The notes: a model not told the origin generated them from the letters alone. A stretch of DNA of 47,786 nt from Tannerellaceae bacterium (GCA_036654795.1 JAVVRI010000002.1:1-47786); one strand, 5' to 3'. Numbered from the stretch's first letter, positions 22,127-39,158 are shown. Numbers and translations are program-made.

Positions 22127-22936
22127 ATGGAAAGCACTGTGTTAAATGTGGAAAAGACGGATGAAAGCTATAAGGTGCCTAATCTGGAAAAAGGTATCGC
22201 TGTGCTGGAGTATTTGTCGCTCCATCCAGCAGGAGAAACTTTGCAGGAAATTAAGTCTGTGCTCGATATATCCCAAACAACTGCCTACCGTATATTAAAT
22301 ACGTTGGTTCGTTTGAATTATCTATTGTATAATGAAGACACCAAGCGTTACAGCCTTTCTCGCAAGATGCTTACGCTGGGTTTCCGGTCGCTGAATGAAC
22401 ATAATTTGCTTGAAACTGTTTTGCCTCGTTTACGCGATTTACGTGATGCTGTAAAGGAAACAGCTTGTTTCGGTGTGCTGGGAAATGAAAAGGGGATTTT
22501 TATTGAACAGGCGCAAGGACACCATACTTTTCGTTTTGTGCTTTCTCCCGGCAAACCGTTCGATTTGCATTGTTCTGCTCCCGGCAAAGCCATCATGGCT
22601 TACCTCCCGAACACAGTGCGCGATCGCTATCTTTCTATCATGGAGTTTACTCCTTATAATAGCCGCACGATTACTACCCAAGAAGCCTATTTGAAAGAAC
22701 TAGAACAGGTGCGCAAGCTTGGTTATTCGATGGATAACGAGGAGGAGCTGAATGGCGTGATTTGCATTGGTGCGCCGATTTTTAATTATACCGGTTACCC
22801 GTGCGGTGCTATTTGGATATCAGGTCCGAAAGATCGTCTGACGAAGGAGGTAATCCGCGCTTCTTCCCAGCAGATAAAAGAGGTTGCTAATACTATTTCT
22901 ACGGAATTAGGTTACGGTAAAATATATAAGAAATAA
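22127..22936 (+). CDS. IclR-family transcriptional regulator
   Basis: 269 aa. N-terminal wHTH LEKGIAVLEYLSLHPAGETLQEIKSVLDISQTTAYRILNTLVRLNYL. The C-terminal IclR effector domain carries RTITTQEAYLKELEQVRKLGYSMDNEEELNGVICIGAPIF. Confidence 0.85.
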   Translation: MESTVLNVEKTDESYKVPNLEKGIAVLEYLSLHPAGETLQEIKSVLDISQTTAYRILNTLVRLNYLLYNEDTKRYSLSRKMLTLGFRSLNEHNLLETVLPRLRDLRDAVKETACFGVLGNEKGIFIEQAQGHHTFRFVLSPGKPFDLHCSAPGKAIMAYLPNTVRDRYLSIMEFTPYNSRTITTQEAYLKELEQVRKLGYSMDNEEELNGVICIGAPIFNYTGYPCGAIWISGPKDRLTKEVIRASSQQIKEVANTISTELGYGKIYKK

Positions 22937-22955
22937 CACACAATACACTAGTATC

Positions 22956-24734
22956 ATGAACACACGAAAATATATAAGAACACAGTTGATTACGGCCTGC
23001 TTGATTGGCTTGTCTGTTGCTTTTGCAGCGGCGGGCAATCCTCCATTGTTTACTACGGACGTGGTGCTGAATGCGAAAGGGGAGATGCTTTTTGCACAAA
23101 AAGGTACAAAACGGATAGATGTTTTTTCAACAGACGGAAAAACATTGTTGCGTTCTTATCCGCTGGACGAAGCTCCTACGGGTATTCTTTTGGATGGAGA
23201 CAAGGCGTATGTAACCACCTTTGGCTCTACAGGGCATTTGCAGATTCTGTTGTTGGAGACGGGTAGGGTAGAGGCTTCCATCCATACTGGCTCCGGCTCC
23301 TGTCACCCGATGTTTGGGGTGGACAAGAAAAAAATCTATGTCTGCAACCAGTTTGATAACAATGTGGTAGAAGTGGATTTGGCTCAGCGTAAAGTGGTGC
23401 GTAGTGCCAAGGTGCTGCGCGAACCCAAATCGGCTGTGCTTAGCAAAGATGGCAAATATATGTTTGTGCCCAACTTCCTGCCTGCCCAGCGTGCGGATTT
23501 GGATGTGGTCGCTGCGGCCGTCTCGGTTATTAAAATGGATGACTTCACTAAGGTAAAAGATATTCCGTTGGCAAATGGTAGCAATGCTTTGCGTGGTATT
23601 TGTATCACGCCGGATGGGAAGTATATTTATGTATCCCATAATTTGGGACGTTTCACCGTTCCGACCTCGCAGTTGCAACAAGGATGGATGAACACGAGTG
23701 CATTTAGTGTGATCGATGTCGCTGCTCAGTCGTTTGTCGGAGCCGTTCTGGTGGATGAGCCGGATCGTGGTGCAGCCGGTATATGGAGCATCGCTTGTAA
23801 CAACGAAAAGATATTTATCAGCCATAGTGGTACGCATGAGATTAGCGTGATTGATCATCAAGCTATGCTCGAACGGTTCCTTGCATATAAGGATAAAAGC
23901 CGTTTGGATTATGATTTGAACTTTCTATACGGTTTGCGTGAACGAATACCGGTTAGCGGTAATGGTCCGCGTTGTCTGCTTCTGGCAGGCAATCAACTGA
24001 TTGTTCCTACTTACTTTGCCGATGTGCTCAATGTGATGGATATTCAAACAAACGTAATGAAGTCTGTCGAGTTGAATCCCGGTCGTACGGAAACAGAGGA
24101 ACAGAAAGGTGAAAAATATTTTAATGATGCGATGAACTGCTTTCAAGGCTGGCAGAGTTGTAACGGATGCCATCCCGGCGATGCGCGTACCGATGGGATG
24201 AACTGGGACTTGATGAATGATGGTGTGGGTAATTCGAAAAACTGTAAAAGTATGCTTTATAGCCATGTTACGCCGCGTAACATGATTTCCGGTATTCGCG
24301 CTTCGGCTGAATTGGCTGTACGTGCCGGATTCAAATTTATCCAATTTTATGAAGTTTCTGAGGAGCAAGCCGCCGCGGTGGATGCCTACATGAAGGCTTT
24401 GCGCCCTGTGCCCAGTCCTTACTTGGTGAACGGTGAATTGTCGGACAAGGCAAAAGAGGGACGTAAGATATTTGATAAGCTCAAGTGTGGCGAGTGTCAT
24501 AGCGGTCCTTACTTTACCGACCTAAAGATGCACCGTATTGGTGAAAACGTGGAGTTCGAAGAGGGATGGGATACCCCTACGTTGGTTGAAGTATGGCGCA
24601 CGGCTCCCTACCTGTTTAATGGTCGGGCAGCCACGATGGAAGAGGTGTTTAGCGTTCATAAACACGGCATCGAAAAGAAGCGGGTTTCAAATAAAGAGAT
24701 AGAAGCATTAACAGAATATGTAAATTCACTTTAA
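22956..24734 (+). CDS. Secreted fusion of a beta-propeller (YVTN-like repeats) with a di-haem cytochrome c peroxidase/MauG-like domain
   Basis: 592 aa with a signal peptide. Repeated GK.(I/M)(Y/F)V... blades are present. Two CXXCH sites occur: CNGCH at nt 24159-24173 and CGECH at nt 24486-24500. The second lies in the CCP-typical context CGECHSGPYFTD...WDTPTLVEVWRTAPYLFNGRAATMEEV. Confidence 0.75.
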   Translation: MNTRKYIRTQLITACLIGLSVAFAAAGNPPLFTTDVVLNAKGEMLFAQKGTKRIDVFSTDGKTLLRSYPLDEAPTGILLDGDKAYVTTFGSTGHLQILLLETGRVEASIHTGSGSCHPMFGVDKKKIYVCNQFDNNVVEVDLAQRKVVRSAKVLREPKSAVLSKDGKYMFVPNFLPAQRADLDVVAAAVSVIKMDDFTKVKDIPLANGSNALRGICITPDGKYIYVSHNLGRFTVPTSQLQQGWMNTSAFSVIDVAAQSFVGAVLVDEPDRGAAGIWSIACNNEKIFISHSGTHEISVIDHQAMLERFLAYKDKSRLDYDLNFLYGLRERIPVSGNGPRCLLLAGNQLIVPTYFADVLNVMDIQTNVMKSVELNPGRTETEEQKGEKYFNDAMNCFQGWQSCNGCHPGDARTDGMNWDLMNDGVGNSKNCKSMLYSHVTPRNMISGIRASAELAVRAGFKFIQFYEVSEEQAAAVDAYMKALRPVPSPYLVNGELSDKAKEGRKIFDKLKCGECHSGPYFTDLKMHRIGENVEFEEGWDTPTLVEVWRTAPYLFNGRAATMEEVFSVHKHGIEKKRVSNKEIEALTEYVNSL

Positions 24735-24776: not shown

Positions 24777-25871
24777 ATGAATTATTGCGAAAAGATACAT
24801 TATAATATATATATTGCCAAGAAAGCAGACTTTTTGACGATGGTCGATGAATTGTTGGCTCAGATACCCGAGAATGAATCGCTTTTGCGGTTAGCGTTTT
24901 TTGGTACACCGAGTAGTAATGAGGAGTATGTTGATCGGCGCGTTTTATTACGTGAAAAGATACGTCGCCGGTATGGCAATCATGAACCCGTGTTGAGTTA
25001 TGTATCTCAGCCACCACTTCATGCAACATTGATATTGGAGGTGCATAGTTATATCCCTGACGAAGATGATCATATAACCTATAAGAGCCTGCGGGGTTTT
25101 CCGTATGTGTTATTAGAAAACAGCGAAGGGCGGTTCCTTTTTGCAGGAGGCTTTCATGGGGATGTAATCAATTTCGCGGTGGAACAGCAGTCGATCGAAG
25201 TGTTTCGACTCGTTGCCGAAGTGATGCGTCGTGAAGGTTTCCCGATTAATAGCATTATTCGCCAATGGAACTACATCGAACAAATCACTCGTTTTGATGG
25301 CGAGAACCAGCACTATCAGACCTTTAATAATGCAAGAGGTGACTATTATGCTATGACGGGATGGCCGGATGGATATCCGGCTGCAACAGGTATTGGGGCA
25401 AATCTGGGTGGTATTCTAGTTGATCTTGATGCTGCAGTTTTTAAGGATTCAACTTGTTTCGCTACGCCGATAGATAATAAATTGCAAGTAGCAGCTCATG
25501 CTTATTCGGAACAAGTTCTGGCATCTGCTCGTCATCGTAAAGCAACGCCGAAATTCGAGCGCGCCAAGAGCATGACTTTTGGGGATCGGAGGTTGGTCTA
25601 TATTTCCGGTACGGCGGCCATTCGGGGAGAAGAAAGTTTGATTGGAGTAGGACTGGCGCGCCAGCTACACATTACGATGGAAAACATCGACCAACTGATT
25701 GGTCAGGCGCGTCTCACGATGCTTAGAGTTTATCTGAAAGAACCCTCTTTTTATGAAGAGGCAGAGGACTTGCTCGAAGCCTATCATTTGGGAATACCCA
25801 TATCTTATATGTGGGCTGACGTATGTCGTGATGAATTGCTTATTGAAATTGAAGGTATAGCTATTGAATAA
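24777..25871 (+). CDS. FkbO/Hyg5-type chorismatase-like protein (YjgF/RidA-fold C-terminus)
   Basis: 364 aa. IRQWNYIEQITRFDGENQHYQTFNNARGDYY and VYISGTAAIRGEES...ITMENIDQLI...LLIEIEGIA match my recollection of the FkbO/Hyg5/XanB2 family. At minimum it contains a RidA-like domain. The start could also be an internal Met (MVDELL). Confidence 0.5.
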   Translation: MNYCEKIHYNIYIAKKADFLTMVDELLAQIPENESLLRLAFFGTPSSNEEYVDRRVLLREKIRRRYGNHEPVLSYVSQPPLHATLILEVHSYIPDEDDHITYKSLRGFPYVLLENSEGRFLFAGGFHGDVINFAVEQQSIEVFRLVAEVMRREGFPINSIIRQWNYIEQITRFDGENQHYQTFNNARGDYYAMTGWPDGYPAATGIGANLGGILVDLDAAVFKDSTCFATPIDNKLQVAAHAYSEQVLASARHRKATPKFERAKSMTFGDRRLVYISGTAAIRGEESLIGVGLARQLHITMENIDQLIGQARLTMLRVYLKEPSFYEEAEDLLEAYHLGIPISYMWADVCRDELLIEIEGIAIE

Positions 25872-25903: not shown

Positions 25904-26641
25904 ATGAGAAAAGGATTAAATGTGAAAACAATGGTAATGGGGATGTTATTATTCTCCATGGTGGCTTGCACTGGCAAGACAAATGGTACGGCTGATTCAG
26001 CCGCATGTGCTGATTCGACACAATGTGCCGGATGTACTACAGATAAATCTAACTGTAAAAATAATAAAGAGATGACTTACACTAAAAAGTACACAAACGC
26101 CGACTTCTACAAGGACGGCAAGTTTAATCAGGAAGTAGCCATGCAGGCTTACAAGGATATGTTCGAATTTTACGGCGTTCCTTTTACTGAGTTAATGGCG
26201 AAAGACATGTGGGTAACAGACTTTGGTTTGGGCGATTTCGAAAACGTAGGTATGGGTGGTATCTTCTGGGTAAACGATTCAGAATACAAGTATTTCGCAC
26301 ATGCTATCTATCTGTTGCCTAACCAAATGATACCCGAACATGCGCACGTAAAAACAGCGTTTCCTGCCAAACATGAATCATGGATGGTTGAAAAAGGCTG
26401 GGTCTATAACTTCTCTGAAGTGGGCGACGAAACGCCAAATGCACCTGCAATTCCTGCCGGTCATGGTCCTATCAAGAGCAAAAACTTCACTGTACAGAAG
26501 GTGGGCGACGTGCTTCGTTTGAAGAAATTGGAAACATTCCACTTTATGATGGCAGGTCCCGAAGGAGCTGTGGTTGACGAGTGGGCATGTTATCACGACA
26601 ACGCAGGTCTGCGCTTTACAAACGCAAAGGCAGCACTTTAA
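25904..26641 (+). CDS. Lipoprotein with a Cys-rich linker and a cupin domain resembling D-lyxose/D-mannose ketol-isomerases
   Basis: 245 aa. Lipobox LFSMVAC|TGK. Linker ...AACADSTQCAGCTTDKSNC. Cupin metal-ligand pattern PEHAHV...KHESW...FHFM. Confidence 0.45.
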   Translation: MRKGLNVKTMVMGMLLFSMVACTGKTNGTADSAACADSTQCAGCTTDKSNCKNNKEMTYTKKYTNADFYKDGKFNQEVAMQAYKDMFEFYGVPFTELMAKDMWVTDFGLGDFENVGMGGIFWVNDSEYKYFAHAIYLLPNQMIPEHAHVKTAFPAKHESWMVEKGWVYNFSEVGDETPNAPAIPAGHGPIKSKNFTVQKVGDVLRLKKLETFHFMMAGPEGAVVDEWACYHDNAGLRFTNAKAAL

Positions 26642-26728: not shown

Positions 26729-29700
26729 ATGAATAAATATAACTTATTAGTGTCGCTTTTCTTATCCTCCTCTTTTCTGGTATCGGCTGTGCCAAAGCAG
26801 AAGACGGTGGAGACGTGGATTGATGCTTCTGTAAAAGCGAAATCAGAATTGCGCGCACAACTTCAGAAGTCAGGTATGCCTGTTCTGTCTAAATGGATGA
26901 AGCATAAAAGTAATGCTGCTCCCTTTGTTGTAGACCTTAAGGGAGTAGATAAGTTGGTGCTGATCACTTCCGGAGGCCCTGACGGTTCCGAATACGATCA
27001 AGCTGTATGGGGTAACGCCCGTTTAATAGCAGCCGATGGTACTTCGGTGTGGTTGGATGAAATTCCTTTTGAATATGGCATAGCTGGTTGGGCTAAACCC
27101 AAGATGAATATCAATGCCTATGATAAAGAAATTTACATCGGTGGAAAACTCTATCCGCATGGTGTGTTTTGCCATGCGAACGGTACGCTGGTCTATCCTG
27201 TAAACAATAAATATGTACGCTTTGAAGCCGAAGTAGGTATAGAAGATACCTCTAGCGGAGGGAGCGTATTCTTTCAGGCGCTGAATGTGTTTCCTAAAAC
27301 GATTGGGGATGCGTTGATCCAGAAATATCCGAGTCAGATCGGTTTGTTGAGTGCCGGTATGGATGGATTGGATACTTGGTTGATTACACCCGATGCTTCT
27401 GTTGAAAAACAGGCTGTAGCGGACGTAGTAGCCAAACTGAAAGATGGCTCTTATTTTAAAAATGCCATGCAGACGATTGACGGAGAGAAAGATCTGAACG
27501 CGCAAATACGTAAATACCTAGAACTGTTTGAAAAGGTACAGGATGTATATACAGTACAATGCGACTTGCAGTGGCTCAATATGGATGCTATCAAGTTGGC
27601 CTTCGACGATATGAAGAAACAGAAAGGCTTTGATGTTGCCAAATACGAACCGATGTACAAAGAATTATTGCAGCTTCAGCAGAAAGGCTTTACCGGTATC
27701 TATAAAGGGGATGCCACAGCATTGGCTGATGCCCGTAAGGCATTGGATAATAAGCGTTCGATATTACTTGGCAACCCGTTGCTGAATGGCGATAAGGTTG
27801 TAGCTACTCACTTTAAATTGGGATCGCGTGCCCGCCAAGCTATGGCTCCCGATTTGGGCACACAGGCTAACAACTGGAGTAATCAAGAGTCTGCTCGTCG
27901 TATCGGTTTTGATGCTGAGATTGTGGAACTGAGTAATCTGCGCGGTGACATCAAAACACGTAGCGTATACAAAGCACCGAATGCCTCTTCTATTGCTGAC
28001 CTGCGTCTGCATTGGGATGGCGACCGGATGATGTTTACACAAACAATGCCCGACAAACGTTGGAATGTATTTGAAGTGAAGATGGATGGAACCGGATGCA
28101 AACCGTTGATTGAAAACGAAGAGCCGGATCTGGAATTCTATGACGGAACTTATCTACCCGACGGACGCATTATTGCAAACTCGAATATTGGTTATCAGGG
28201 TGTTCCCTGCGTAAGTGGTGACGACCCTGTCGGCAACATGGTGCAGTACGATCCGAAGAGCAAGACGCTGCGTCGTTTGACTTTCGATCAGGATGCCAAC
28301 TGGAATCCGGTAGTGATGAATAACGGTCGTGTGATGTATACTCGTTGGGAGTACACGGACTTGACGCACTACTATTCACGTATCATTATGCACATGAATC
28401 CGGACGGAACGGAAAATAAAGCGCTTTATGGTAGTGGCTCTATGTTCCCGAATAGTACGTTCGACGTACAACCTCTTCCGGGACATTCTTCTGCTTTTGT
28501 AGGTGTTATTTCCGGACACCACGGTATTGCTCGCTCGGGGCGTCTGATCGTATTCGATCCGACAAAAGCTCGTAAGGGAACAGCTGGTATTGTACAGGAG
28601 ATTCCTTATCGTAATCGTCCAGTAGTAGAGTTAATAAAAGATGAATTGGTAAATGGCGTATGGCCTCAGTTCATCAAACCGACTCCGCTAAATGACAAAT
28701 ACTTCTTAGTTGCTGCGAAGTTAGATCAGCAATCCTTGTGGGGTATCTATTTGGTGGATATCTATGATAATGTAACTTGTCTGATGCAGGCAGAAGGCGA
28801 AGGTTTTATCAGTCCCGTTGTACTGCGCAAGACGGCAACACCTCCGGCCATTCCAGACCGTGTGAAGCTGAATGACAAGGAAGCTACCGTCTTTATTCAG
28901 GACATTTACGAAGGAGAGGGTTTGATGGGTGTGCCTCGTGGTATCGTCAAATCACTCCGTCTGCATGCTTATGAATATGCTTATGTGAAGACGACTTCCG
29001 ATCATAACTGGCATGGTATTCAGAGTGGGTGGGACATCAAGCGTCAATTGGGTACGGTACCTGTTGAGTCGGATGGTTCTGTGATCTTTAAAGTTCCGGC
29101 CAATACGCCTATCTCCATTCAACCGTTGGATGAAAACGGAGTTGCCATTCAATGGATGCGTAGCTGGTTTACAGCACAACCGGGTGAAGTAGTTTCTTGC
29201 GTAGGTTGCCATGAAGATCAAAATCAGATCCCGATGCCGAAGCGTGTCATTGCTTCTCAGAAGGCTCCTTCCCGATTGGCTACCCCTGAAGGTGGTGTCC
29301 GTTCGTTCACATTCGACCTCGAGATACAACCTATTTTGGATCGTGCTTGTATTGCCTGCCATAATGGTGAAGGTAAAGCGTTCGATATGCGTGGTGGTAA
29401 GAAGGATAAGCGTGGTTATGGTTCATCCTATCTAAACCTTCATCCTTACGTTCATCGTCAAGGAGGAGAAGGAGATATGGTCGTATTGCAACCTTACGAA
29501 TATCATCCCAATACCAGCGAATTGGTTCGTATGTTGAAGAAGGGTCATCACAATGTGAAACTGACCGATGCCGAATGGTTGAAACTTTATAACTGGATTG
29601 ATTACAATGCTCCGGATAAGGGTTATTTCAATGCCAATAAGATCACAGACTTCCCTTATAAGGGTTTCGATCAGATTGCTCGTCGTAAGGAGTTGACCGA

Positions 29701-30724
29701 CAAATATGCCGGTGGTGCCGGGGTCGATTGGAAAAAAGAAATCTCCGACTATGCCGGATACTTGAAGAGTAAAGGAGAAATCAAACCCGTAATGCCTGAA
29801 AAACTACCTCCTGTAAAGGAAAAGACAGTGAAGGTAAAGGGCTGGCCATTTGACGCAACTGCTATTAAAGCAATGTTAGCGAACGAAAAGGAAACTCGCA
29901 AAGAGATAGAACTGATGCCGGGTGTTAAAATGACATTTGTACGCATCCCTGCCGGTACGTTTGTTATGGGTAGTTATCAGGGTGAACCTGACGCTTATCC
30001 TATATCCAAAGTGAAGATTGCAAAATCTTTCTGGATGGCGGAAATGGAAGTAACGAACGAACAGTTCCGTACGATCTATCCCGACCATGACAGCCGCTTT
30101 GTCGATCAGATGTGGAAAGACCACGTTGTGCAAGGTTATCCTGCCAACAATCCGGAGCAACCAGTTATCCGCGTAAGCTATAACGACGCTATGGAATATT
30201 GCAAGAAACTGAGTGAAAAGACAGGTCTCCACATTACGCTTCCTACCGAGGCACAATGGGAGTGGGCTTGTCGCGCAGGTAGTGCTGAAGACTTCTGGTA
30301 TGGTAACATGAATGCTAATTTTGGCAAGTTCGAAAACCTGGCCGATGTTACGACACTCAAGTTTGCTGTAAGCGGTGTTAATCCGCAGCCGATGCCAAAG
30401 ACATCAAGCTGGTACAAGTACTATACATATCTTCCGAAAGAAGAAGGTGTTGATGATGGAAATCTGATTCAGGTAAATTCGAAAGCCTATCAGGCTAATC
30501 CCTTCGGATTGTACAGTATGCATGGTAATATTGCCGAGTGGACTCGTTCTGATTACGCGTCTTATCCGTACTCTGAAAAAGTTAAAACTCCTTCAGAATA
30601 CAAAGTTGTGCGCGGAGGTTCGTATATTGAGCGCCCGAAGTACTCTACGGCTTATTCCCGCAAGGCATATTATCCGTATCAACGCGTGTTCAACGTGGGC
30701 TTCCGGGTAGTGATTGAAGATTAA
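26729..30724 (+). CDS. 1331-aa secreted multidomain protein: NPCBM-like carbohydrate-binding module, helical region, TolB/PD40-like propeller, two CXXCH haem-c motifs (HzsA-middle-domain-like region), and a C-terminal FGE-sulfatase-fold domain
   Basis: Signal peptide MNKYNLLVSLFLSSSFLVSA. NPCBM-like segment YIGGKLYPHGVFCHANGTLVYPVNNKYVRFEAEVGIEDTSSGGSVFFQ. CVGCH lies at nt 29198-29212 and CIACH at nt 29348-29362. The FGE-fold covers about nt 29905-30721, with FWMAEMEVTNEQF, GLYSMHGNIAEWT, VVRGGSY and NVGFRVV. Confidence 0.7.
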   Translation: MNKYNLLVSLFLSSSFLVSAVPKQKTVETWIDASVKAKSELRAQLQKSGMPVLSKWMKHKSNAAPFVVDLKGVDKLVLITSGGPDGSEYDQAVWGNARLIAADGTSVWLDEIPFEYGIAGWAKPKMNINAYDKEIYIGGKLYPHGVFCHANGTLVYPVNNKYVRFEAEVGIEDTSSGGSVFFQALNVFPKTIGDALIQKYPSQIGLLSAGMDGLDTWLITPDASVEKQAVADVVAKLKDGSYFKNAMQTIDGEKDLNAQIRKYLELFEKVQDVYTVQCDLQWLNMDAIKLAFDDMKKQKGFDVAKYEPMYKELLQLQQKGFTGIYKGDATALADARKALDNKRSILLGNPLLNGDKVVATHFKLGSRARQAMAPDLGTQANNWSNQESARRIGFDAEIVELSNLRGDIKTRSVYKAPNASSIADLRLHWDGDRMMFTQTMPDKRWNVFEVKMDGTGCKPLIENEEPDLEFYDGTYLPDGRIIANSNIGYQGVPCVSGDDPVGNMVQYDPKSKTLRRLTFDQDANWNPVVMNNGRVMYTRWEYTDLTHYYSRIIMHMNPDGTENKALYGSGSMFPNSTFDVQPLPGHSSAFVGVISGHHGIARSGRLIVFDPTKARKGTAGIVQEIPYRNRPVVELIKDELVNGVWPQFIKPTPLNDKYFLVAAKLDQQSLWGIYLVDIYDNVTCLMQAEGEGFISPVVLRKTATPPAIPDRVKLNDKEATVFIQDIYEGEGLMGVPRGIVKSLRLHAYEYAYVKTTSDHNWHGIQSGWDIKRQLGTVPVESDGSVIFKVPANTPISIQPLDENGVAIQWMRSWFTAQPGEVVSCVGCHEDQNQIPMPKRVIASQKAPSRLATPEGGVRSFTFDLEIQPILDRACIACHNGEGKAFDMRGGKKDKRGYGSSYLNLHPYVHRQGGEGDMVVLQPYEYHPNTSELVRMLKKGHHNVKLTDAEWLKLYNWIDYNAPDKGYFNANKITDFPYKGFDQIARRKELTDKYAGGAGVDWKKEISDYAGYLKSKGEIKPVMPEKLPPVKEKTVKVKGWPFDATAIKAMLANEKETRKEIELMPGVKMTFVRIPAGTFVMGSYQGEPDAYPISKVKIAKSFWMAEMEVTNEQFRTIYPDHDSRFVDQMWKDHVVQGYPANNPEQPVIRVSYNDAMEYCKKLSEKTGLHITLPTEAQWEWACRAGSAEDFWYGNMNANFGKFENLADVTTLKFAVSGVNPQPMPKTSSWYKYYTYLPKEEGVDDGNLIQVNSKAYQANPFGLYSMHGNIAEWTRSDYASYPYSEKVKTPSEYKVVRGGSYIERPKYSTAYSRKAYYPYQRVFNVGFRVVIED

Positions 30725-30815: not shown

Positions 30816-33266
30816 ATGAAAACAACGCTCAACAGAATTATTTCCTCTTATGTGACGACTGTCGTCTTACTTTTAGTCTATGCCCTTGTCTTGGCATTGG
30901 CCACTTTTATAGAAAAGTATCACGGTACACCGGCGGCTAAAGCGATGGTTTACTACTCACCTTTATTCTTTCTGTTGCATTTTCTGCTAGTTCTTAATTT
31001 TATCTCAGCCCTTTTAAAGCACCAGTTACTTAAAAAACGTAAATGGGGATTGATGCTGACTCACCTCTCTTTTATTATTATTCTATTAGGAGCTTTGGTC
31101 TCTTTCCTTTTTGGGGAAGAGGGCATCCTTCATCTCCGTGAAGGAGAAAGCAGCGACCGTATAGCTGTTCATGCTGACGGTAAAACAACCTTTCACACGC
31201 TGCCTTTCAGTGTGGAGCTTGTCAAATTTAATTTAACCCGTTATCCCGGTTCGGCTAGTCCGTCATCGTATGAAAGCGAATTGTTGGTGCATGTGGACGG
31301 GACGACACGCAATGAACGAGTATTTATGAATAACATCCTTGACGTAAAAGGATATCGTTTCTTTCAGGCCTCTTATGATACGGACGAACAGGGGACTGTT
31401 CTCTCTGTAAATCGTGACGTAGCCGGAAGAAATATAACGTATACCGGTTACCTATTATTGGTGATCGGATTTATCTTTTGTTTTATTGGGAAAAACTCCC
31501 GTTTTATGAAGTTGAGCCGTCGGCTGAAAGAGCTGCGCGCTTCTGCTTCGGTTGTGGGGACACTTCTGTTGTTACTAATATCCACGGTTTCGCTGAGTGC
31601 GAAGGAAAGTGCTTCGCCTATGTTAGACGCTGTATTAAAGTATCAGATTAGTCCGGCTCATGCCGCCACCTTTGGTGCGCTGCCGGTACAGTTGGGTAAC
31701 GGACGTATGGTTCCGGTTAATACTTTCTCCTCCGAAATTCTTCGTAAATTACATAAATCAGAACGAATCGGTACGATCAACTCCGATCAATTCTTGTTAA
31801 GCCTTTTGGCTATGCCGGATATGTGGATGCGGGTGCCATTCATTGCTAACGGCAATCAAGAGCTCAGCTCGTATTACGATCTGAGCAAGGATGAATGCGC
31901 CTACATTGAGCTTTTCGATAGCAACGGTAACTACAAGTTACAAGAGAAGTTGGACGAGGCTTACAATAAAATGCCTGCCGATCGTAATCGCTTCGACAAA
32001 GACCTGCTCAAACTGGACGAGCAAATCAACATACTCCACCAACTGATGAATGAGCAAATGCTAAACCTCTTTCCGCGCGAAGAGGCGCCAGACCATAAAT
32101 GGTATGCTCCGGGTGATGATTTGTCCGATTTCAATGGTAAGGATTCGATGTTTGTTTCCCGCATTATGGACTGGTACCTGTCAGAGGTACAGACTGCTTT
32201 GCAGAGTGGCGAATGGTCGAAAGCGGATGAGGTCGTCGGCATGATCTCTACCTACCAACAGGCAAAAAACAAGACGCTAGATATTAGTCCGAAAAAGATA
32301 CAAGCCGAATTGAAATATAACAAAATGGAGGTGTTCCGTTATTGTAAGATTGGCTACTTGATTCTAGGCGGGCTCTTGCTGACACTTTCGTTCGTTATGC
32401 TTTTCCGGCAGCGGAGGTGGATGAAGGGAATGATCTGGGTGCTGGGTATTGGTGTGCTGATCGTTTTCCATTTCCATATGTTGGGGATGGGGATGCGATG
32501 GTATATTGCTGGTTATGCCCCCTGGAGTAATTCGTATGAAACGATGGTTTATGTGGCTTGGGCTACTATTTTGGGCGGTTTGCTGTTTGTGCGTCGTAGC
32601 ACGATCACTTTCTCGCTCGCCACATTGTTTGGAGGGATTATTCTCTTTGTTTCCGGTCTGAGTTGGATGGATCCGCAGATCAATCAGCTGGTGCCGGTGC
32701 TGAAGTCGCCTTGGCTGATGTTTCATGTAGCTGTCATTGTGGCGGCTTATGGTTTCTTTGGCATCAGTTGCCTGATCGGGTTGACGAATCAAGTAATGAT
32801 GTGCATCGGTGGTAAGAAAAGTCGCGCCTTATTGCGCAACCGCATACAAGAATTGACGATTGTAAACGAAATGTCCCTATTGGTCGGCTTGGCGTTGATG
32901 ACGATTGGCACCTTCCTTGGAGCTGTCTGGGCAAACGAGTCGTGGGGACGTTATTGGGGCTGGGATCCGAAAGAGACTTGGGCATTAATTACAATGGTGC
33001 TCTATGCCGTGGTTATTCATTTGCGCTTAGTGAAGCGCTGGGACAATCCGTGGTTGCTTAACTTGGGTTCAGTCGTAGTCTTCTTCTCTGTGCTGATGAC
33101 CTTCTTTGGTGTCAATTATTTATTGAGCGGCATGCACTCCTACGGTCAAAGTGATGTGGCGAACAGTTTGTTTGTCTATCTTTACGTGGCCGCAGGCTTG
33201 GTGGTAGTATTGGCCTGCTTTAGCCGCAAGGGATGGTTCAAACTTGAAGATAAAGAACAGAAATAA
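30816..33266 (+). CDS. ccsBA: Fused system II cytochrome c synthase CcsBA (ResB/Ccs1-like N-terminus + CcsA C-terminus)
   Basis: 816 aa. The N-terminus has TM helices and a large soluble loop as in ResB. The C-terminus carries the Trp-rich haem-handling motif WANESWGRYWGWDPKETWALI and multiple TM helices. Confidence 0.8.
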   Translation: MKTTLNRIISSYVTTVVLLLVYALVLALATFIEKYHGTPAAKAMVYYSPLFFLLHFLLVLNFISALLKHQLLKKRKWGLMLTHLSFIIILLGALVSFLFGEEGILHLREGESSDRIAVHADGKTTFHTLPFSVELVKFNLTRYPGSASPSSYESELLVHVDGTTRNERVFMNNILDVKGYRFFQASYDTDEQGTVLSVNRDVAGRNITYTGYLLLVIGFIFCFIGKNSRFMKLSRRLKELRASASVVGTLLLLLISTVSLSAKESASPMLDAVLKYQISPAHAATFGALPVQLGNGRMVPVNTFSSEILRKLHKSERIGTINSDQFLLSLLAMPDMWMRVPFIANGNQELSSYYDLSKDECAYIELFDSNGNYKLQEKLDEAYNKMPADRNRFDKDLLKLDEQINILHQLMNEQMLNLFPREEAPDHKWYAPGDDLSDFNGKDSMFVSRIMDWYLSEVQTALQSGEWSKADEVVGMISTYQQAKNKTLDISPKKIQAELKYNKMEVFRYCKIGYLILGGLLLTLSFVMLFRQRRWMKGMIWVLGIGVLIVFHFHMLGMGMRWYIAGYAPWSNSYETMVYVAWATILGGLLFVRRSTITFSLATLFGGIILFVSGLSWMDPQINQLVPVLKSPWLMFHVAVIVAAYGFFGISCLIGLTNQVMMCIGGKKSRALLRNRIQELTIVNEMSLLVGLALMTIGTFLGAVWANESWGRYWGWDPKETWALITMVLYAVVIHLRLVKRWDNPWLLNLGSVVVFFSVLMTFFGVNYLLSGMHSYGQSDVANSLFVYLYVAAGLVVVLACFSRKGWFKLEDKEQK

Positions 33267-33297
33267 CCTATATAAAAACATTTAAAACAAAGTAATC

Positions 33298-33612
33298 ATG
33301 AGAACATTTAATCACGTAGGTATTCCTACAACTGAAAGTAAAGCAGGAGCAGTCTATAACGAAGGTCTGAGTGTCTGGCTGACTGATTATAGTAAAAGTA
33401 CAAACCGCATTGAATTTTTAAAGTTTGAGGCAGGTAGCTGCATGCCTGAATTGATTCAAACAACAGCTCATTTGGCTTATACCGTGCCTTGTCTCAAAAC
33501 AGAACTGGAAGGTAAAAAGGTCATCTTTGGCCCGGCTGTATGCGACGAGCATCTGACGATTGCTTTTATCGAAGAAGAGGGTATTGCTATTGAAATTATG
33601 GAAATTAAATAA
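33298..33612 (+). CDS. Small VOC (glyoxalase/bleomycin-resistance fold) family protein
   Basis: 104 aa. The FNHVGIPT start, HLAYTV and IAFIEEEGIAIEIMEI fit the paired beta-alpha-beta-beta-beta module pattern. Confidence 0.5.
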   Translation: MRTFNHVGIPTTESKAGAVYNEGLSVWLTDYSKSTNRIEFLKFEAGSCMPELIQTTAHLAYTVPCLKTELEGKKVIFGPAVCDEHLTIAFIEEEGIAIEIMEIK

Positions 33613-33635
33613 TAAAAAAAAGGAGGAATCACATT

Positions 33636-34652
33636 ATGTCAGCTATTAAAACAAAATTCATTAACGAACCGGATCAGATCACACCCGAATTGCTGGAAGG
33701 TTATGTGTTAGCTTATAAAGATAAAGTAAAATTGGCTAGTGAGAATATCGTCGTACGCGTACAGCCGAAGAGCGAAGACAAAGTGGCTGTTGTTACTTTG
33801 GGCGGATCTGGACACGAACCTGCCTTGAGCGGTTTCGTTGGCGAAGGTATGTTGGACTGTTCCGTAGTGGGCGATGTTTTTGCTGCTCCAGGTGCACAAC
33901 GTCTTTTTCAGGCTTTGCAACTGATGAAGCGCGAAGCTGGTATCCTGTTGGTGGTGCTTAACCATTCCGGCGACATTATGAGTGCAAACATGGCTTGCCA
34001 GTTGGCTGCCCGCGTAGGTATCAAAGTAAAGCAAATCATTACACACGATGACATTAGTGCTGGTGTAGGTACGGACAATAACGATCGTCGTGGTCTGGCT
34101 GGTTGCGTTCCGTTATATAAAATATTGGGCGCTGCCGCTGAAGAAGGCAAATCATTGGACGAACTGATCGAAATAGGCGAACGTTTCAATAACAAATTGG
34201 CTACACTGGCTGTGGCTATGCGCTCATGTACACACCCGCAGAATGGTGGTATCATTACCGACCTGCCCGAAGGCGTGATGGAGATTGGTATGGGACAGCA
34301 TGGTGAAGGTGGTGGCGGTTGCCAACCTCTTGTGTCGGCTGACGCTACTGCCACCCAGATGATCGATTTGCTTTGTCAGCAATTGAAACCGGCAGCCGGA
34401 GACAAGATGCTTCTTGTCATCAATGGCGTAGGTGCTACGACCCACATGGAGCTAAACATCATCTTCCGTAAAGCTTATATGGAGCTTGAAGCCCGTGGCC
34501 TCGAAGTTGCAGAAAGCCGTATTCAGGAGATCTTGACCGTACAGGAACAGGCTGGTTTCCAGATGATCCTTGCCGGACTGGATGCTGATCATATCGACTA
34601 TTTGAAGAACAAACGCTCCGATGCTCCTTACTGGACTGTTATCGGCAAATAA
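33636..34652 (+). CDS. dhaK: DhaK-type (dihydroxyacetone/ketose kinase) substrate-binding subunit
   Basis: 338 aa. LGGSGHEPALSGFVGEGMLDCSVVGDVFAAP and EIGMGQHGEGG are DhaK signatures. An AGGAGG sequence lies 9 nt upstream of the ATG. Confidence 0.85.
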   Translation: MSAIKTKFINEPDQITPELLEGYVLAYKDKVKLASENIVVRVQPKSEDKVAVVTLGGSGHEPALSGFVGEGMLDCSVVGDVFAAPGAQRLFQALQLMKREAGILLVVLNHSGDIMSANMACQLAARVGIKVKQIITHDDISAGVGTDNNDRRGLAGCVPLYKILGAAAEEGKSLDELIEIGERFNNKLATLAVAMRSCTHPQNGGIITDLPEGVMEIGMGQHGEGGGGCQPLVSADATATQMIDLLCQQLKPAAGDKMLLVINGVGATTHMELNIIFRKAYMELEARGLEVAESRIQEILTVQEQAGFQMILAGLDADHIDYLKNKRSDAPYWTVIGK

Positions 34653-34666
34653 TAAATAATAACGCT

Positions 34667-35281
34667 ATGAAACAATTAACAACAGATGCTTTCAAAACCA
34701 TGCTTCAGCATGCGTTGACACAGATTAAGGCTCGCGAAGATGAGTTCTCAAAGTTGGATGCCGTGATTGGTGACGGCGACCATGGTATGGCCATCGTTTC
34801 TGCTTTTTCCGTAGCTGTGGAAGCAGCAGAGAAAGGAACAGAGTTTAAGGCCATGCTTAATGATATGGGCTTTGGTGTTATGCTGGCAACGAGTGGCTCA
34901 ACCAGTACCTTAATGGGTGCCTTCTTCTTGGGTATGAGCGATCATGCTGCTGGTACGGAGCTGGATGCTACTGCTGTAAAGGCGATGTTTGCTGGTGGAC
35001 TAGCAAACATACAACAACAGACCAAAGCCCAGAAGGGGGATAAAACGATGATGGATGCTCTTATTCCTGCTATCGAAGCAATGGAAGCTTGTACGTCGGA
35101 CGATGTGAAAGAGATACTGACCGCCGGTGCCACGGCTGCTCTTGCCGGAGCCGAAGCTACTATACAAATGAAGGCAAATTTCGGACGCGCGCGCAACTAT
35201 GGTGAACGCTCTATCGGTTATGCGGACAGCGGCGCTACTTCTTGGAGTTGCATGCTGGCCTCTTTCGCTGAAGCTTTTTGA
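34667..35281 (+). CDS. dhaL: DhaL-type nucleotide-binding subunit of the DhaK/DhaL kinase
   Basis: 204 aa. LDAVIGDGDHGMA (Mg-nucleotide-binding Asp cluster) and GDKTMMDALIPA are present. Confidence 0.85.
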   Translation: MKQLTTDAFKTMLQHALTQIKAREDEFSKLDAVIGDGDHGMAIVSAFSVAVEAAEKGTEFKAMLNDMGFGVMLATSGSTSTLMGAFFLGMSDHAAGTELDATAVKAMFAGGLANIQQQTKAQKGDKTMMDALIPAIEAMEACTSDDVKEILTAGATAALAGAEATIQMKANFGRARNYGERSIGYADSGATSWSCMLASFAEAF

Positions 35282-35327
35282 CCTCAGATAGCAATTAAAA
35301 TAATAAACAATAAAAACAACTTAAGTA

Positions 35328-36200
35328 ATGGCAGATTTAGATGATTTAAGAGAAGGTAACGACTTTGGTGTAGGAGTATCCTCTCAGAACCAGAGTTTTC
35401 ATGTAAAGGGTGCGGCCAACCAAGCTTGGGGCATGAAGGATCGCTTGTCGCGCATATTCAATCCCGAAACAGGTAAGGCCGTTATGCTGGCTTTCGACCA
35501 TGGTTTCATTATGGGGCCTACCTCCGGATTGGAGCGTATTGACCTCAATATTGTACCTCTGATTGAGTATGCTGACTGCTTGATGTGTACGCGTGGTATT
35601 CTGCAATCTACTATTCCCGCAAACGTAAACAAGCCGATTTGTCTTCGTTCTGATGCTGGTACGACGATTTTGACAGAGCTAAACAACAACGTGCTAATCG
35701 ATATTGAAGATGCTATACGCATGAACGTATCTGCTATGGCTGTTATGTTGGCTATTGGCGATCCTGCCTTCGAAGCTACAACAGTTGCCAATCTGTTTAA
35801 AGCAGCAGACAAAGGAGCTCGTTACGGTATTCCTGTTATGGGAGTAACTGCAGTAGGCAAGCAAATGGCTCGTGACGCCCGCTACTTTGGTTTGGCCTCA
35901 CGTATTTGTGCTGAGAACGGTGCAAACATCGTGAAGACTTACTATTGCGAAGGCTTTGAGAAAGTAGCTGCTGCCTGCCCCGTGCCGGTAGTAATTGCCG
36001 GAGGTAAGAAATTGCCCGAAAAGGAAGCGCTGGAGTTATGCTACAACGCCATCAATGACGGTGCTGCCGGTGTGGACATGGGACGTAATGTATTCCAAAG
36101 TGCTCATCCTGTTGCTATGATTCAAGCAGTACGTGCCGTGGTACACGACGGATTAACACCCGACCAAGCCATGGAGTTATTCCGCGACATCGCAGAATAA
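35328..36200 (+). CDS. Class I aldolase of the DhnA/FbaB family, LsrF-like (LsrF is 3-hydroxy-5-phosphonooxypentane-2,4-dione thiolase)
   Basis: 290 aa. These segments align along the whole length with my recollection of E. coli LsrF: MADLDDLREGNDF..., WGMKDRLSRIFNPETGKAVMLAFDHG, GLERIDLNIVPL, ADCLMCTRGIL, GANIVKTYY, CPVPVVIAGGKKLPEKEALE and GVDMGRNVFQSAHPVAM. Confidence 0.7.
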   Translation: MADLDDLREGNDFGVGVSSQNQSFHVKGAANQAWGMKDRLSRIFNPETGKAVMLAFDHGFIMGPTSGLERIDLNIVPLIEYADCLMCTRGILQSTIPANVNKPICLRSDAGTTILTELNNNVLIDIEDAIRMNVSAMAVMLAIGDPAFEATTVANLFKAADKGARYGIPVMGVTAVGKQMARDARYFGLASRICAENGANIVKTYYCEGFEKVAAACPVPVVIAGGKKLPEKEALELCYNAINDGAAGVDMGRNVFQSAHPVAMIQAVRAVVHDGLTPDQAMELFRDIAE

Positions 36201-36259
36201 GCATAGGCATATTAGAGAATAAATATCACACAGATGATGTAGATCTAAATAGAAGTGTC

Positions 36260-36291
36260 CGCAGCTCTTATCTTTACGGAAAAGAGCTGCG
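36260..36291 (+). terminator. Rho-independent-type terminator after the LsrF-like gene
   Basis: 10-bp stem CGCAGCTCTT / AAGAGCTGCG with a 12-nt loop, followed by the T-rich TTCGCTTATTCTATTATTT. Confidence 0.6.
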
Positions 36292-36339
36292 TTCGCTTAT
36301 TCTATTATTTAACCATACATAATAAAACAAACACATACC

Positions 36340-37224
36340 ATGAATAAAGCTTATATGTTATTAATTGCTGCCCTACTGCTATTGGTCGGTACCTCTTGCC
36401 AACCTAAGGCAGAAAAGTTATTGCTGGGTGGTTCCGGTTGGAATAAAATAGTAATCATCGACAAAGAGACAAAGGCTATTGAATGGGAGCATCCCATGGA
36501 AGCTGGTTGGGAATGTAACTCCGTAGCCGCTACGACGGACGGGAACATCCTTTTCTCATACGCCAAAGGTGCCAAACTAATCACAAAGGATCATAAAGAG
36601 CTTTGGAATATACCTGCCCCTGAAGGTGCAGAGATGCAGACCGCCGCTATCCTGGCAGACGGCAACTTTTTGCTGGCTTGGTGCGGCCATCCGGCTACCA
36701 TTATGGAAGTATCGCCTAAGGGTGAAATGCTGAAAAAGGTAGAATACGAAACTGGTGTAGAAGCACCTCACGCACAGTTCCGCCACGTAAGCAAGGCGGC
36801 TAACGGCAATTATTTGATGCCTATCTTTGCCACTTCCGACGTGCGCGAAATAAGTCCCGAAGGTACATTGGTTAAGACGATCGCCCTCGAAGGTACTCCT
36901 TTCTGTATTGTTCCGTTAGCGAATGGAAACTCGCTGGCTGCTTGTGGCGATGCGCATAGCTATGTGGAGTTGGATGCAAACGGTGCGATTGTACGTAAAG
37001 TGAGCGGTACTGATATTGAAGGCACTTCTCTTTACTTTGTTGCCGAACTGTTACCCCTTGCGGATGGCAGTCTATACGTATGTAACTGGCAAGGACATGG
37101 AGGCGATGCTGCCGCAGGCACTTTCCCCCAATTGATCGAAGTGGACAAAACCGGCAAGATGATCTGGAGCCTAAACGACAATGCCGCTTTTGGCATGATA
37201 TCGGCTATCTGTCCGGTGAAGTAG
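36340..37224 (+). CDS. Lipoprotein, predicted small beta-propeller (family not identified)
   Basis: 294 aa. Lipobox LLLVGTSC|QPK. Repeated motifs of the type DGN(I/F)L...G....(V/I) suggest blades. Confidence 0.45.
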   Translation: MNKAYMLLIAALLLLVGTSCQPKAEKLLLGGSGWNKIVIIDKETKAIEWEHPMEAGWECNSVAATTDGNILFSYAKGAKLITKDHKELWNIPAPEGAEMQTAAILADGNFLLAWCGHPATIMEVSPKGEMLKKVEYETGVEAPHAQFRHVSKAANGNYLMPIFATSDVREISPEGTLVKTIALEGTPFCIVPLANGNSLAACGDAHSYVELDANGAIVRKVSGTDIEGTSLYFVAELLPLADGSLYVCNWQGHGGDAAAGTFPQLIEVDKTGKMIWSLNDNAAFGMISAICPVK

Positions 37225-37274: not shown

Positions 37275-39158
37275 ATGAAGTTGCATCTTATCGACGTACT
37301 TATTATAGCACTCTACCTGGTGGTGATGGTCATCATCGGGTTGGTGCTTAAAAAGAAAGCGTCAAAGAATCTGGACTCTTACTTCCTGGGGGGTAAGAGT
37401 TTGCCTTTTTATATGCTGGGGCTGTCCAATGCCTCGGGGATGTTCGATATCTCCGGGACGATGTGGATGGTTTACCTTGCGTTCGTTTATGGATTAAAGA
37501 GCCTTTGGATACCTTGGCTGTGGCCGGTATTCAATCAAATCTTCCTCATGATATACCTTTCCATCTGGCTGCGCCGCTCGAATGTACTGACGGGAGCGGA
37601 GTGGATCCGTACGCGCTTCGGCTTCGGACGTGGGGCTACGCTTTCGCATACCATTGTGGTGATATACGCTGTGGTCGGTGTGTTGGGCTTCTTGAGTTAC
37701 GGCTTCATTGGTATTGGTAAGTTTATGGAGATTTTCTTCCCCTGGGAGATTGTGTCGCAATATGTACCTTTCGACGTGGCGCCTGAGTATGTACCGCATG
37801 TGTATGGCATCTTCTTTACTACCATTGCTACCTTCTATGTGATGATGGGGGGGATGTTGAGCATTGTCTGGACGGACGTGGTGCAGTTTGGTATTATGAC
37901 CGTTGCCGGTGTCGTGATTGCTGTGATTGCAATGATGAAGGTAACGCCTGAGATGCTTTCTGCTCATGTACCGGTAGGATGGGATACCCCTTTCTTTGGC
38001 TGGACGCTGGATATGGACTGGAGCCAGCTGATACCTGCCGTGACGGATAAGATGGCGGCAGATCAGTATGGACTCTTTACGATTGTCATCATGATGATGC
38101 TCTTTAAAGGAGTATTCCTTAGCATGGCCGGTCCGGCGCCTAACTATGACATGCAGAAAATTCTTGCCTGTAAGACACCGAAGGAGGCTGCCCTGATGAG
38201 TGGTTCCGTGCCGGTGATTCTGCTTATACCGCGCTATCTGATGATTATGGGTTTTGCCGTGTTGGCTATTGTCTTCTTTAGTGAAGACTTCCGGTCGATG
38301 GGTGCGGCGGTGGACTTTGAAACGATTTTGCCCCGTGCTATTGGCGAGTTTGTGCCGGTAGGGTTGGCCGGGCTGTTGCTGGCGGGATTGCTGGCTGCCT
38401 TTATGTCGACCTTCGCCTCTACGGTGAACGCCGCGCCGGCTTATCTGGTGAACGATGTGTATTTGAAGTATATTAACCCGAAGGCTTCTGCCCGCACGCA
38501 GATTCGTGCCAGTTACCTGATTTCGGTGCTGGTCGTGGTGGTCAGTACGGTGATAGGTCTCTTTGTGCTCAATATCAACTCGGTGTTACAGTGGATTGTT
38601 TCTGCTCTTTATGGTGGATATATCGCTGCCAACTTGTTGAAGTGGCATTGGTGGCGCTTCAACGGATATGGATACTTCTGGGGTATGTTGGCCGGCATCT
38701 TGGCCGCTATGATTGTGCCGCAGTTCTTCCCGAATACCTTGCCGCTCTATTATTTCCCGTTGCTAATGTTCGTATCGTTCATCGGTTGTATTGTGGGTAC
38801 GTTGCTGAACGAACCGACGGACGACGAGACACTGATCAACTTCTATGTGCGTGTTCGTCCGTGGGGCTTCTGGAAGCCGATAGCAGACAAGGCCGTGGCA
38901 CGTTATCCGAAGGTGGAGCGTAATACGCATTTTAAACGCGATATGTTTAACGTAGCCATCGGTATTGTCTGGCAGTTGAGTTTGACCATTATCCCGATGT
39001 ACATCGTAATCAAAGAGGGCATGCCGCTCTTTACTTCCATTATTATCCTAGGTGTAACAACGCTGATCTTAAAGAAGAACTGGTACGACAAGATGGATAA
39101 GGAGTCGAAGGAATACGACACGTTGATGGACGAACTGAAACTGGAAGAAAAGAAATAG
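37275..39158 (+). CDS. Sodium:solute symporter (SSS) family transporter
   Basis: 627 aa with about 13-14 hydrophobic helices and N-terminal LDSYFLGGKSLP typical of SSS carriers. Confidence 0.75.
   Translation: MKLHLIDVLIIALYLVVMVIIGLVLKKKASKNLDSYFLGGKSLPFYMLGLSNASGMFDISGTMWMVYLAFVYGLKSLWIPWLWPVFNQIFLMIYLSIWLRRSNVLTGAEWIRTRFGFGRGATLSHTIVVIYAVVGVLGFLSYGFIGIGKFMEIFFPWEIVSQYVPFDVAPEYVPHVYGIFFTTIATFYVMMGGMLSIVWTDVVQFGIMTVAGVVIAVIAMMKVTPEMLSAHVPVGWDTPFFGWTLDMDWSQLIPAVTDKMAADQYGLFTIVIMMMLFKGVFLSMAGPAPNYDMQKILACKTPKEAALMSGSVPVILLIPRYLMIMGFAVLAIVFFSEDFRSMGAAVDFETILPRAIGEFVPVGLAGLLLAGLLAAFMSTFASTVNAAPAYLVNDVYLKYINPKASARTQIRASYLISVLVVVVSTVIGLFVLNINSVLQWIVSALYGGYIAANLLKWHWWRFNGYGYFWGMLAGILAAMIVPQFFPNTLPLYYFPLLMFVSFIGCIVGTLLNEPTDDETLINFYVRVRPWGFWKPIADKAVARYPKVERNTHFKRDMFNVAIGIVWQLSLTIIPMYIVIKEGMPLFTSIIILGVTTLILKKNWYDKMDKESKEYDTLMDELKLEEKK

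Follow-up and report, generated by a model that had tools for sequence, protein, structure and literature searches.

In a 47,786-nucleotide stretch of a Tannerellaceae bacterium genome (GCA_036654795.1, JAVVRI010000002.1:1-47786; hereafter "the window"), an orthologue of LsrF, an enzyme of autoinducer-2 (AI-2) processing, is encoded together with a two-subunit dihydroxyacetone-kinase-family kinase and a minimal VOC-fold protein, which appear to stand in for LsrK and LsrG. The module consists of four co-directional open reading frames (ORFs) on the + strand at 33298-36200, in the order VOC, DhaK, DhaL, LsrF homologue, with intergenic gaps of 23, 14, and 46 nt and products of 104, 338, 204, and 290 aa. 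We give even chances to the possibility that these genes form a self-sufficient, cytoplasmic equivalent of LsrK-LsrG-LsrF, converting a C5 hydroxy-diketone of the 4,5-dihydroxy-2,3-pentanedione (DPD) or 1,3-dihydroxypentane-2,4-dione (HPD) type into dihydroxyacetone phosphate (DHAP) and acetyl-coenzyme A (acetyl-CoA). Two of the module's three activities would then come from families unrelated to their Lsr counterparts. An initial annotation, made from the sequence alone, had listed LsrK, LsrG, LsrACDB, and LsrR as missing, along with any dhaM-like gene. Consistent with this, Pfam scans of the window's other long ORFs returned no PTS/DhaM, FGGY, ABM, ribose-type ABC, or SorC domain, nor were EIIA-Man, HPr, or EI domains found among the scanned ORFs.

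The strongest assignment is that of the last gene (35328..36200, +). To our knowledge, LsrF has been recognised solely as the final enzyme of Lsr-mediated processing of AI-2, chiefly among enterobacteria along with some Firmicutes. It reportedly turns 3-hydroxy-5-phosphonooxypentane-2,4-dione (P-HPD) and CoA into DHAP and acetyl-CoA, a reaction that Marques et al. are said to have described in 2014. The window protein aligns over its full length with E. coli LsrF (PDB 3gkf; E-value 4.6e-108, 364 bits, 57.7% identity), as the initial annotation had proposed on the strength of motifs that were all found in this alignment. Against the NCBIfam LsrF equivalog NF006081, it scored 462.6 bits (cut-off 297), far above the 175.7 bits reached at best by the runner-up models, i.e., ADH synthase and archaeal aldolase. 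The ORF thus groups with LsrF rather than with generic FbaB/DhnA aldolases, a comparison on which the initial annotation had made its reading hinge. In the E. coli LsrF structure (Diaz et al., PMC2728841), Lys203 forms the Schiff base, Asp57 serves as general base, His58, Gly226, Gly227, Gly253, and Arg254 bind phosphate, and Asp251, next to the lysine, is particular to LsrF, being Ala in close homologues and Ala or Ser in other aldolases. The window protein carries D57, H58, K203, G226, G227, D251, M252, G253, and R254 (E. coli numbering). Across all 77 aligned sequences, no LsrF active-site residue was lost, Asp251 within a conserved GVDMGRN motif included. Judged by sequence, the 290-aa ORF is an LsrF orthologue with a class-I-aldolase fold and not a generic DhnA/FbaB aldolase, and its predicted activity is the CoA-dependent cleavage of P-HPD to DHAP and acetyl-CoA.

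The two middle genes encode the substrate-binding subunit DhaK (33636..34652, +; PF02733, 4.7e-95; PDB 3ct4, 1.5e-57) and the nucleotide-binding subunit DhaL (34667..35281, +; PF02734, 3.3e-36; PDB 2btd, 5.5e-23), bearing out the two-subunit kinase first noted. DhaK-family kinases phosphorylate a hydroxymethyl group adjoining a carbonyl. The catalytic apparatus is retained: GGSGHEP, NHSGD, and GQHGE, the last containing the hemiaminal His, are conserved in DhaK across 104 loci along with the His/Asp catalytic pair, and DhaL carries DAVIGDGDHG, of which the GDGDHG Mg/nucleotide motif is kept in 97 of 103 loci. Both subunits nevertheless fall below equivalog level, DhaK scoring under every NCBIfam DhaK cut-off (e.g., 282.4 vs 406.25 for TIGR02363) and DhaL under that of TIGR02365 (126.2 vs 138.3), which marks them as a distinct subfamily. 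The residue preceding the hemiaminal His is Gln in 103 of 104 loci (GQHGE; window 34290-34304, DhaK residues 219-223) and Ile in E. coli and L. lactis DhaK; this Gln may be a specificity determinant.

The first gene (33298..33612, +) encodes a 104-aa protein with no Pfam match at the gathering threshold and no NCBIfam match; just 10 of 43 relatives matched Glyoxalase_4, none of them better than an E-value of 0.013. Its AlphaFold2 model (pLDDT, the predicted local confidence score, of 96.3) has eight main strands in a paired beta-alpha-beta-beta-beta fold, with the usual helix absent from the first half. The best Foldseek matches in the PDB were all VOC proteins (probability 1.0, template modelling (TM) score 0.6-0.7), namely methylmalonyl-CoA epimerase, glyoxalase I, HPPD, and two uncharacterised VOC-fold entries. 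A profile built from 43 diverse relatives likewise matched Clostridium glyoxalase I in the PDB (6.4e-6). Of four conserved residues, two (H6 and E99) never vary and two (E39 and H58) are at least 90% conserved. In the model, these residues sit on strands 1, 4, 5, and 8, an H/E/H/E tetrad that matches the VOC metal-ligand placement and provides the predicted metal ligands. On its modelled fold, together with the profile and the conserved positions, the 104-aa protein is a member of the VOC superfamily, as had been suggested, and we propose it as the isomerase standing in for LsrG.

We then asked how consistently these genes occur together, using 80 species-level genome loci gathered via the VOC gene, mainly from Parabacteroides, Bacteroides, Alistipes, Massilibacteroides, Dysgonomonas, Muribaculaceae, and the flavobacterium Sediminicola. 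DhaK was present in 74 of these loci, DhaL in 73, and LsrF in 72, in constant order and strand; the VOC gene adjoined DhaK in 74, and the full VOC-DhaK-DhaL-LsrF order was found on one strand in 72. In other organisms the order differs, being DhaL-VOC-DhaK-LsrF in L089 and DhaL-DhaK-LsrF-VOC in two further loci (L082, L090). In L082-L084, the DhaL-DhaK-LsrF-VOC operon includes a VOC relative of just 38% identity, with a chemotaxis-receptor gene alongside. The 72/80 synteny, together with the shuffled orders, argues that the grouping is not due to chance. In three Alistipes loci (L032, L033, L037) and one from Parabacteroides (L016), only unrelated genes flank the four, which indicates an autonomous unit with no need for another dedicated enzyme. 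No additional gene recurs in the operons as a candidate for the missing DhaM. Three more distant VOC relatives (P0256, P0251, and P0340) lie on contigs too short for context. Two variants of these arrangements were also recorded. In two low-GC loci (L092 9391-12357 and L122 9548-12513), DhaL-DhaK-LsrF-VOC is followed by a PTS EIICB gene and a Lyase_1/adenylosuccinate-lyase-like gene. In Alistipes and Rikenellaceae loci L076-L080 (e.g., L078 9402-10312), the VOC gene is paired with a cupin gene without DhaKL or LsrF; the cupin, which has no signal peptide, and the VOC protein are 58% and 46% identical to window proteins, and the two may work as a pair.

Viewed from LsrF, the partnership appears as one of two mutually exclusive alternatives. 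Metagenomes were scanned with an LsrF alignment, the VOC family being too diverse for this purpose, and the neighbours of 80 further LsrF genes were clustered; the comparison covers 81 LsrF-centred loci, a biased sample. DhaK/DhaL lay within 6 kb of LsrF in 33 of these loci, while about 24 had the canonical partners, i.e., LsrK, an LsrB-like binding protein, and an LsrR-like regulator. The FGGY kinase of the canonical loci is bona fide LsrK (766 bits vs a cut-off of 528). None of the 81 loci combined the DhaKL and LsrK sets, no lsrK, lsrG, lsrACDB, or lsrR domain was found within 6 kb of DhaKL-type LsrFs, and the VOC gene accompanied DhaKL but never LsrK. DhaKL and LsrK are therefore mutually exclusive partners of LsrF in the loci examined. 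In a neighbour-joining (NJ) tree, DhaKL-type and LsrK-type LsrFs were intermixed, with E. coli LsrF inside a DhaKL-type clade beside Bacteroidota sequences. Exclusivity of the partners and intermixing of the LsrFs together form the pattern expected if DhaKL and VOC had displaced LsrK and LsrG around an unchanged LsrF. In addition, a 115-aa Cupin_2 protein is encoded beside LsrK in nine canonical loci (L096, L101, L106, L108, L115, L128, L135, L141, and L161) and may be another non-orthologous LsrG substitute; in L103, this small cupin, found elsewhere with LsrK, accompanies the VOC gene.

From these patterns, we infer the following substrate, step order, phosphate donor, and products. HPD (CH3-CO-CHOH-CO-CH2OH) is effectively an acetyl-substituted dihydroxyacetone, and DPD is its 3,4-carbonyl-shifted isomer; their interconversion by an enediolate shift is glyoxalase-I-type chemistry and suits a metal-dependent VOC enzyme. 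The VOC metalloenzyme would first catalyse a metal-stabilised 1,2-carbonyl shift through an enediolate on a DPD-family C5 hydroxy-diketone, yielding HPD or equilibrating its isomers. The conserved DhaK His would then bind the carbonyl adjoining the terminal CH2OH, and DhaL would transfer phosphate to give P-HPD; with no DhaM, the phosphate donor is presumed to be ATP. Lastly, LsrF would form a Schiff base via its K203 equivalent and pass the acetyl group to CoA, releasing DHAP and acetyl-CoA. The initial annotation had placed isomerisation after phosphorylation, on phosphorylated DPD. An order with VOC acting before the kinase seems equally or more likely, because HPD, and not DPD, has the -CO-CH2OH group that DhaK enzymes phosphorylate. 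The existence of stand-alone four-gene modules further argues for an input that has already reached the oxidation level of a diketone. An acyl-CoA product would fit two neighbouring genes, a phosphotransacylase-acetate kinase (Pta-Ack) fusion directly downstream of LsrF in L134 (8971-11091) and a butyrate kinase (Buk) gene about 2.5 kb upstream of the module's VOC gene on Aureibacter plasmid pAT4 (L170 8416-9489).

Several observations weigh against this route or against AI-2 as its entry point. Acyl-kinase neighbours were found in just 2 of 170 loci. The ABC binding proteins beside DhaKL-type modules in L104, L105, and L112 lack LsrB motifs and score weakly on allose and xylose models, and SorC regulators beside such modules score nearer to Bacillus DeoR than to LsrR, so that neither gives an independent sign of AI-2 as the ligand. 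A 2-hydroxyacid dehydrogenase adjoins the module in L103 and L104, and a short-chain dehydrogenase/reductase (SDR) in L160. These dehydrogenases, together with the neighbouring haem proteins and a sugar-isomerase-type cupin described below, suggest that the natural input may be more reduced and sugar-like rather than free DPD. The VOC relative P0312 occurs in an unrelated context, so not every member of the VOC family accompanies LsrF. The NJ tree was built without support values or outgroup, and the class I aldolase fold of LsrF makes aldol cleavage chemically possible. Of the interpretation first offered for this locus, comparative evidence sustains the part in which LsrF works with DhaKL and VOC in place of LsrK and LsrG, while AI-2/DPD is no more than a candidate for the physiological substrate. 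The input need not be free AI-2: 5-deoxyribose, via 5-deoxyribulose oxidised to the HPD level, is a candidate input.

The main competing explanation is a ketose-1-phosphate route, in which cupin and/or VOC would isomerise an aldose, DhaKL would phosphorylate the ketose at C1, and the LsrF-like protein would act as a class I aldolase to yield DHAP and an aldehyde. Candidate substrates are 5-deoxyribose via 5-deoxyribulose-1-phosphate, erythrulose, xylulose from lyxose, and fructose from mannose. The established action of DhaK kinases on a hydroxymethyl beside a carbonyl and the DeoC/LacD class I aldolase fold of the LsrF-like protein are both compatible with it. So is the sugar-related context, i.e., a D-lyxose/D-mannose isomerase-family cupin conserved in the cluster, a sugar-type transporter and a GH130 enzyme downstream both here and in P. 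distasonis, and sugar-type ABC binding proteins adjoining the module elsewhere. This cupin, however, is missing from the stand-alone modules, and in the window it is exported while the kinase is cytoplasmic. No aldehyde- or alcohol-dehydrogenase family was among the 25 most frequent Pfam families of 97 neighbouring proteins, and the Pta-Ack and Buk neighbours indicate an acyl-CoA product. An aldolase role also sits poorly with the 462 bits on the LsrF model against at most 176 on aldolase and ADH-synthase models, with the invariant LsrF-specific Asp251, and with the nesting of E. coli LsrF among module sequences in the NJ tree. Also counted against this route is that, in the part available of their report, the depositors of the E. 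coli LsrF structure stated that the activity they expected of it had not yet been obtained (PMC2728841). We therefore regard the ketose-1-phosphate route as less well supported than the thiolytic one, and unlikely, if still worth keeping in view.

Two further explanations have lower standing. In a methylglyoxal route, DhaKL would phosphorylate a 6-deoxy-5-keto-hexulose, the LsrF-like protein would release DHAP and methylglyoxal by the reverse of archaeal 6-deoxy-5-ketofructose-1-phosphate (DKFP) formation, and the VOC protein would be a glyoxalase-I-type detoxifier. Glyoxalase I is indeed the best PDB sequence match of the VOC family profile, and the nearest characterised LsrF paralogue, ADH synthase MJ0400, uses DKFP. 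The orthology with LsrF (model scores, Asp251, and tree) makes this very improbable, as do the equally good fold matches of the VOC protein to methylmalonyl-CoA epimerase and HPPD; moreover, no thiol-cofactor or glyoxalase II gene was linked. The module could also be read as an ordinary dihydroxyacetone/glycerol kinase lying by chance beside unrelated genes, following the public annotation of DhaK and DAK2, which ties them to glycerol metabolism. We found this scarcely credible, with DhaK and DhaL below equivalog cut-offs and neither DhaM nor glycerol dehydrogenase among the scanned window ORFs, and rejected chance adjacency on the four-gene synteny, kept across phyla and in several gene orders.

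Compared with known systems, the LsrF-DhaKL-VOC module is closest in logic to the Lsr pathway of E. coli and Salmonella, with which it has in common the catalytic and phosphate-binding residues of LsrF, the kinase/isomerase/thiolytic scheme, and a compact co-transcribed organisation. It differs in its kinase (two-subunit DhaK/DhaL instead of FGGY LsrK), in its candidate isomerase (the 104-aa VOC metalloprotein instead of ABM-fold LsrG), in having neither an LsrACDB transporter nor LsrR, in an isomerase step that probably precedes the kinase, and, here, in being embedded in a haem-protein operon. Like DhaKLM of E. coli and Lactococcus lactis, it divides the kinase between DhaK and DhaL and conserves the hemiaminal His, the His/Asp catalytic pair, and the GDGDHG nucleotide site, but DhaM is absent, both subunits score under equivalog cut-offs, GQHGE has Gln for Ile, and LsrF takes the place of glycerol genes as genomic partner. 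The 5-deoxyribose salvage pathways or DHAP shunts (DrdK-DrdI-DrdA; MtnK/MtnA/Ald2-type) also combine a kinase, an isomerase, and C-C cleavage to convert a methyl-terminated C5 sugar into DHAP and a C2 unit. They do so with entirely different enzyme families, and their class II aldolase releases acetaldehyde, whereas acetyl-CoA would be the product of an LsrF-type enzyme. Archaeal ADH synthase MJ0400 and class I fructose-1,6-bisphosphate (FBP) aldolase share with the window LsrF a TIM-barrel class I aldolase fold and a Schiff-base lysine, but scored only 108 and 51 bits, respectively, vs 364 bits for E. coli LsrF. Both have Ala in place of Asp251 (PMC2728841). Public annotation already names lsrF, DhaK, and DAK2, with the VOC gene labelled "hypothetical"; within an incomplete coverage of the literature, we found no publication on a DhaKL-VOC-LsrF module or on its link to hydrazine-synthase-like proteins.

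This link stems from a larger conserved operon, absent from the initial annotation, which surrounds the module at 22127-37224 with gaps of at most 139 nt and recurs in most Bacteroidales loci, Sediminicola, and several metagenomic loci. All of its genes are on the + strand. At its head is an IclR-family regulator (22127..22936; PF01614, PF09339), found at the same position in P. distasonis and variably conserved in other loci. The next gene (22956..24734; 59/80 loci) encodes an exported protein with a signal peptide, a beta-propeller, and a di-haem CCP/MauG-like part with two CxxCH motifs, resembling a fusion of hydrazine synthase beta and gamma subunits (NF052342, 6.5e-25; PDB 5c2v_B, 1e-14, and 5c2v_C, 5e-14). 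It is followed by a cytoplasmic chorismatase-family protein without signal peptide (24777..25871; FkbO/Hyg5 N-terminal PF21168 and RidA-like PF01042; PDB 5ag3, 7.6e-17; 56/80 loci), the gene for which also occurs after LsrF in L130. A lipoprotein (25904..26641; 68/80 loci) has a signal peptide and Cys, then a linker rich in Cys, and a D-lyxose/D-mannose isomerase-family cupin domain with a conserved PEHAH...E...H metal motif; it was assigned by family profile against the PDB (7nzo, 5.8e-15; 2y0o, 1e-11), its AlphaFold2 model (pLDDT 53) being set aside. An exported 1331-aa protein (26729..30724; 63/80 loci) contains an NPCBM domain (PF08305), a hydrazine-synthase-alpha middle domain (PF18582, 1.5e-36), two CxxCH motifs, and a C-terminal formylglycine-generating enzyme (FGE)/PvdO-like domain (PF03781, 3e-42), with PDB matches to PvdO, ToxD, FGE, and hydrazine synthase alpha. 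For its FGE-like domain (29933-30724), PvdO and ToxD of the toxoflavin pathway rank above true formylglycine-generating enzymes, and the final ~40 residues of the protein contain no Cys. A fused CcsB/CcsA (CcsBA) cytochrome c maturation protein (30816..33266; PF05140, PF01578, TIGR03144 2.9e-50; 63/80 loci) immediately precedes the module. Downstream lies a Mala s 1-like beta-propeller lipoprotein (36340..37224; PF22701, 1.6e-68; directly after LsrF in 51/80 loci), and beyond it two accessory genes, an SSS-family transporter (37275-39158, +; PF00474; 11/80 loci) and a GH130 enzyme (39187-40185, +; PF04041; 14/80 loci). In P. distasonis, an MFS transporter replaces the SSS protein before GH130.

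The hydrazine-synthase-like set and CcsBA (22956-33266), with four CxxCH motifs in total, are retained alongside the module in about 60 of the 80 genomes, and in Sediminicola the module lies between haem-protein genes, an arrangement that argues for a functional linkage of the two. The resemblance to anammox hydrazine synthase extends to the combination of a beta-gamma-like fusion with an alpha-middle-domain protein, co-localised and with four CxxCH, but the similarity is weak: the proteins share homologous domains only and miss the equivalog level by far (87 vs 1250 for the beta-gamma fusion, 43 vs 800 for alpha), the alpha-like protein has extra NPCBM and FGE-like domains, and the host is an anaerobic gut Bacteroidales. 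A 2025 survey reported hydrazine-synthase homologues outside anammox bacteria in which key residues were not conserved and no function was assigned (PMC12758564). A speculative idea is that the haem proteins and the cupin, all exported, make the diketone out of a precursor from outside the cell. In its full form, in which exported cytochromes, the cupin, and the chorismatase-like hydrolase would make a diketone at the HPD/DPD level and the module would be the cytoplasmic end of the pathway, converting it to DHAP and acetyl-CoA, we judge the idea improbable, below even the ketose-1-phosphate route. Candidate precursors would be 5-deoxyribose or another deoxy-sugar, a 4-hydroxy-3(2H)-furanone (e.g., norfuraneol), and AI-2.

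When 21.5-41 kb was scanned for sigma-70 promoters and terminators, the numbers found did not exceed those expected from shuffled sequence, Bacteroidota promoters differing from the sigma-70 model. The whole cluster is also carried by a 170-kb P. distasonis record designated "plasmid 3" (L169, NZ_OY725748.1), typed as non-mobilizable, which may be a chromosomal fragment. Elsewhere in the window, 12001-20000 has a G+C content of 56-60% vs 43-50% in most of the window, and encodes MenC, MenB, MenD, and MenF-like proteins on the minus strand, a HAD-thioesterase fusion, and an SF1 helicase; a foreign origin or an assembly join is possible. A GH84 beta-N-acetylglucosaminidase followed by two paralogous DUF3857/transglutaminase-like proteins (3596-9863) is unrelated to the module.

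Taken together, orthologous LsrFs occur across Bacteroidota and other organisms, and in our biased sample they are accompanied by the alternative kinase and isomerase at least as frequently as by LsrK. Either AI-2/DPD-type compounds would thus be catabolised by many organisms thought to be devoid of Lsr, including gut Parabacteroides, Bacteroides, and Alistipes, or P-HPD would be a more general metabolic intermediate with sources besides AI-2. The linkage to the module also provides a metabolic handle on the hydrazine-synthase-like family, to whose members beyond anammox bacteria no function has been assigned. If the extracellular conversion outlined above were true, it would for the first time give non-anammox hydrazine-synthase homologues a function, and gut Bacteroidales would gain a route for scavenging or quenching AI-2-family compounds. 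More generally, the module, which is widespread among abundant gut genera, points to an undescribed route by which a five-carbon hydroxy-diketone would enter central metabolism.

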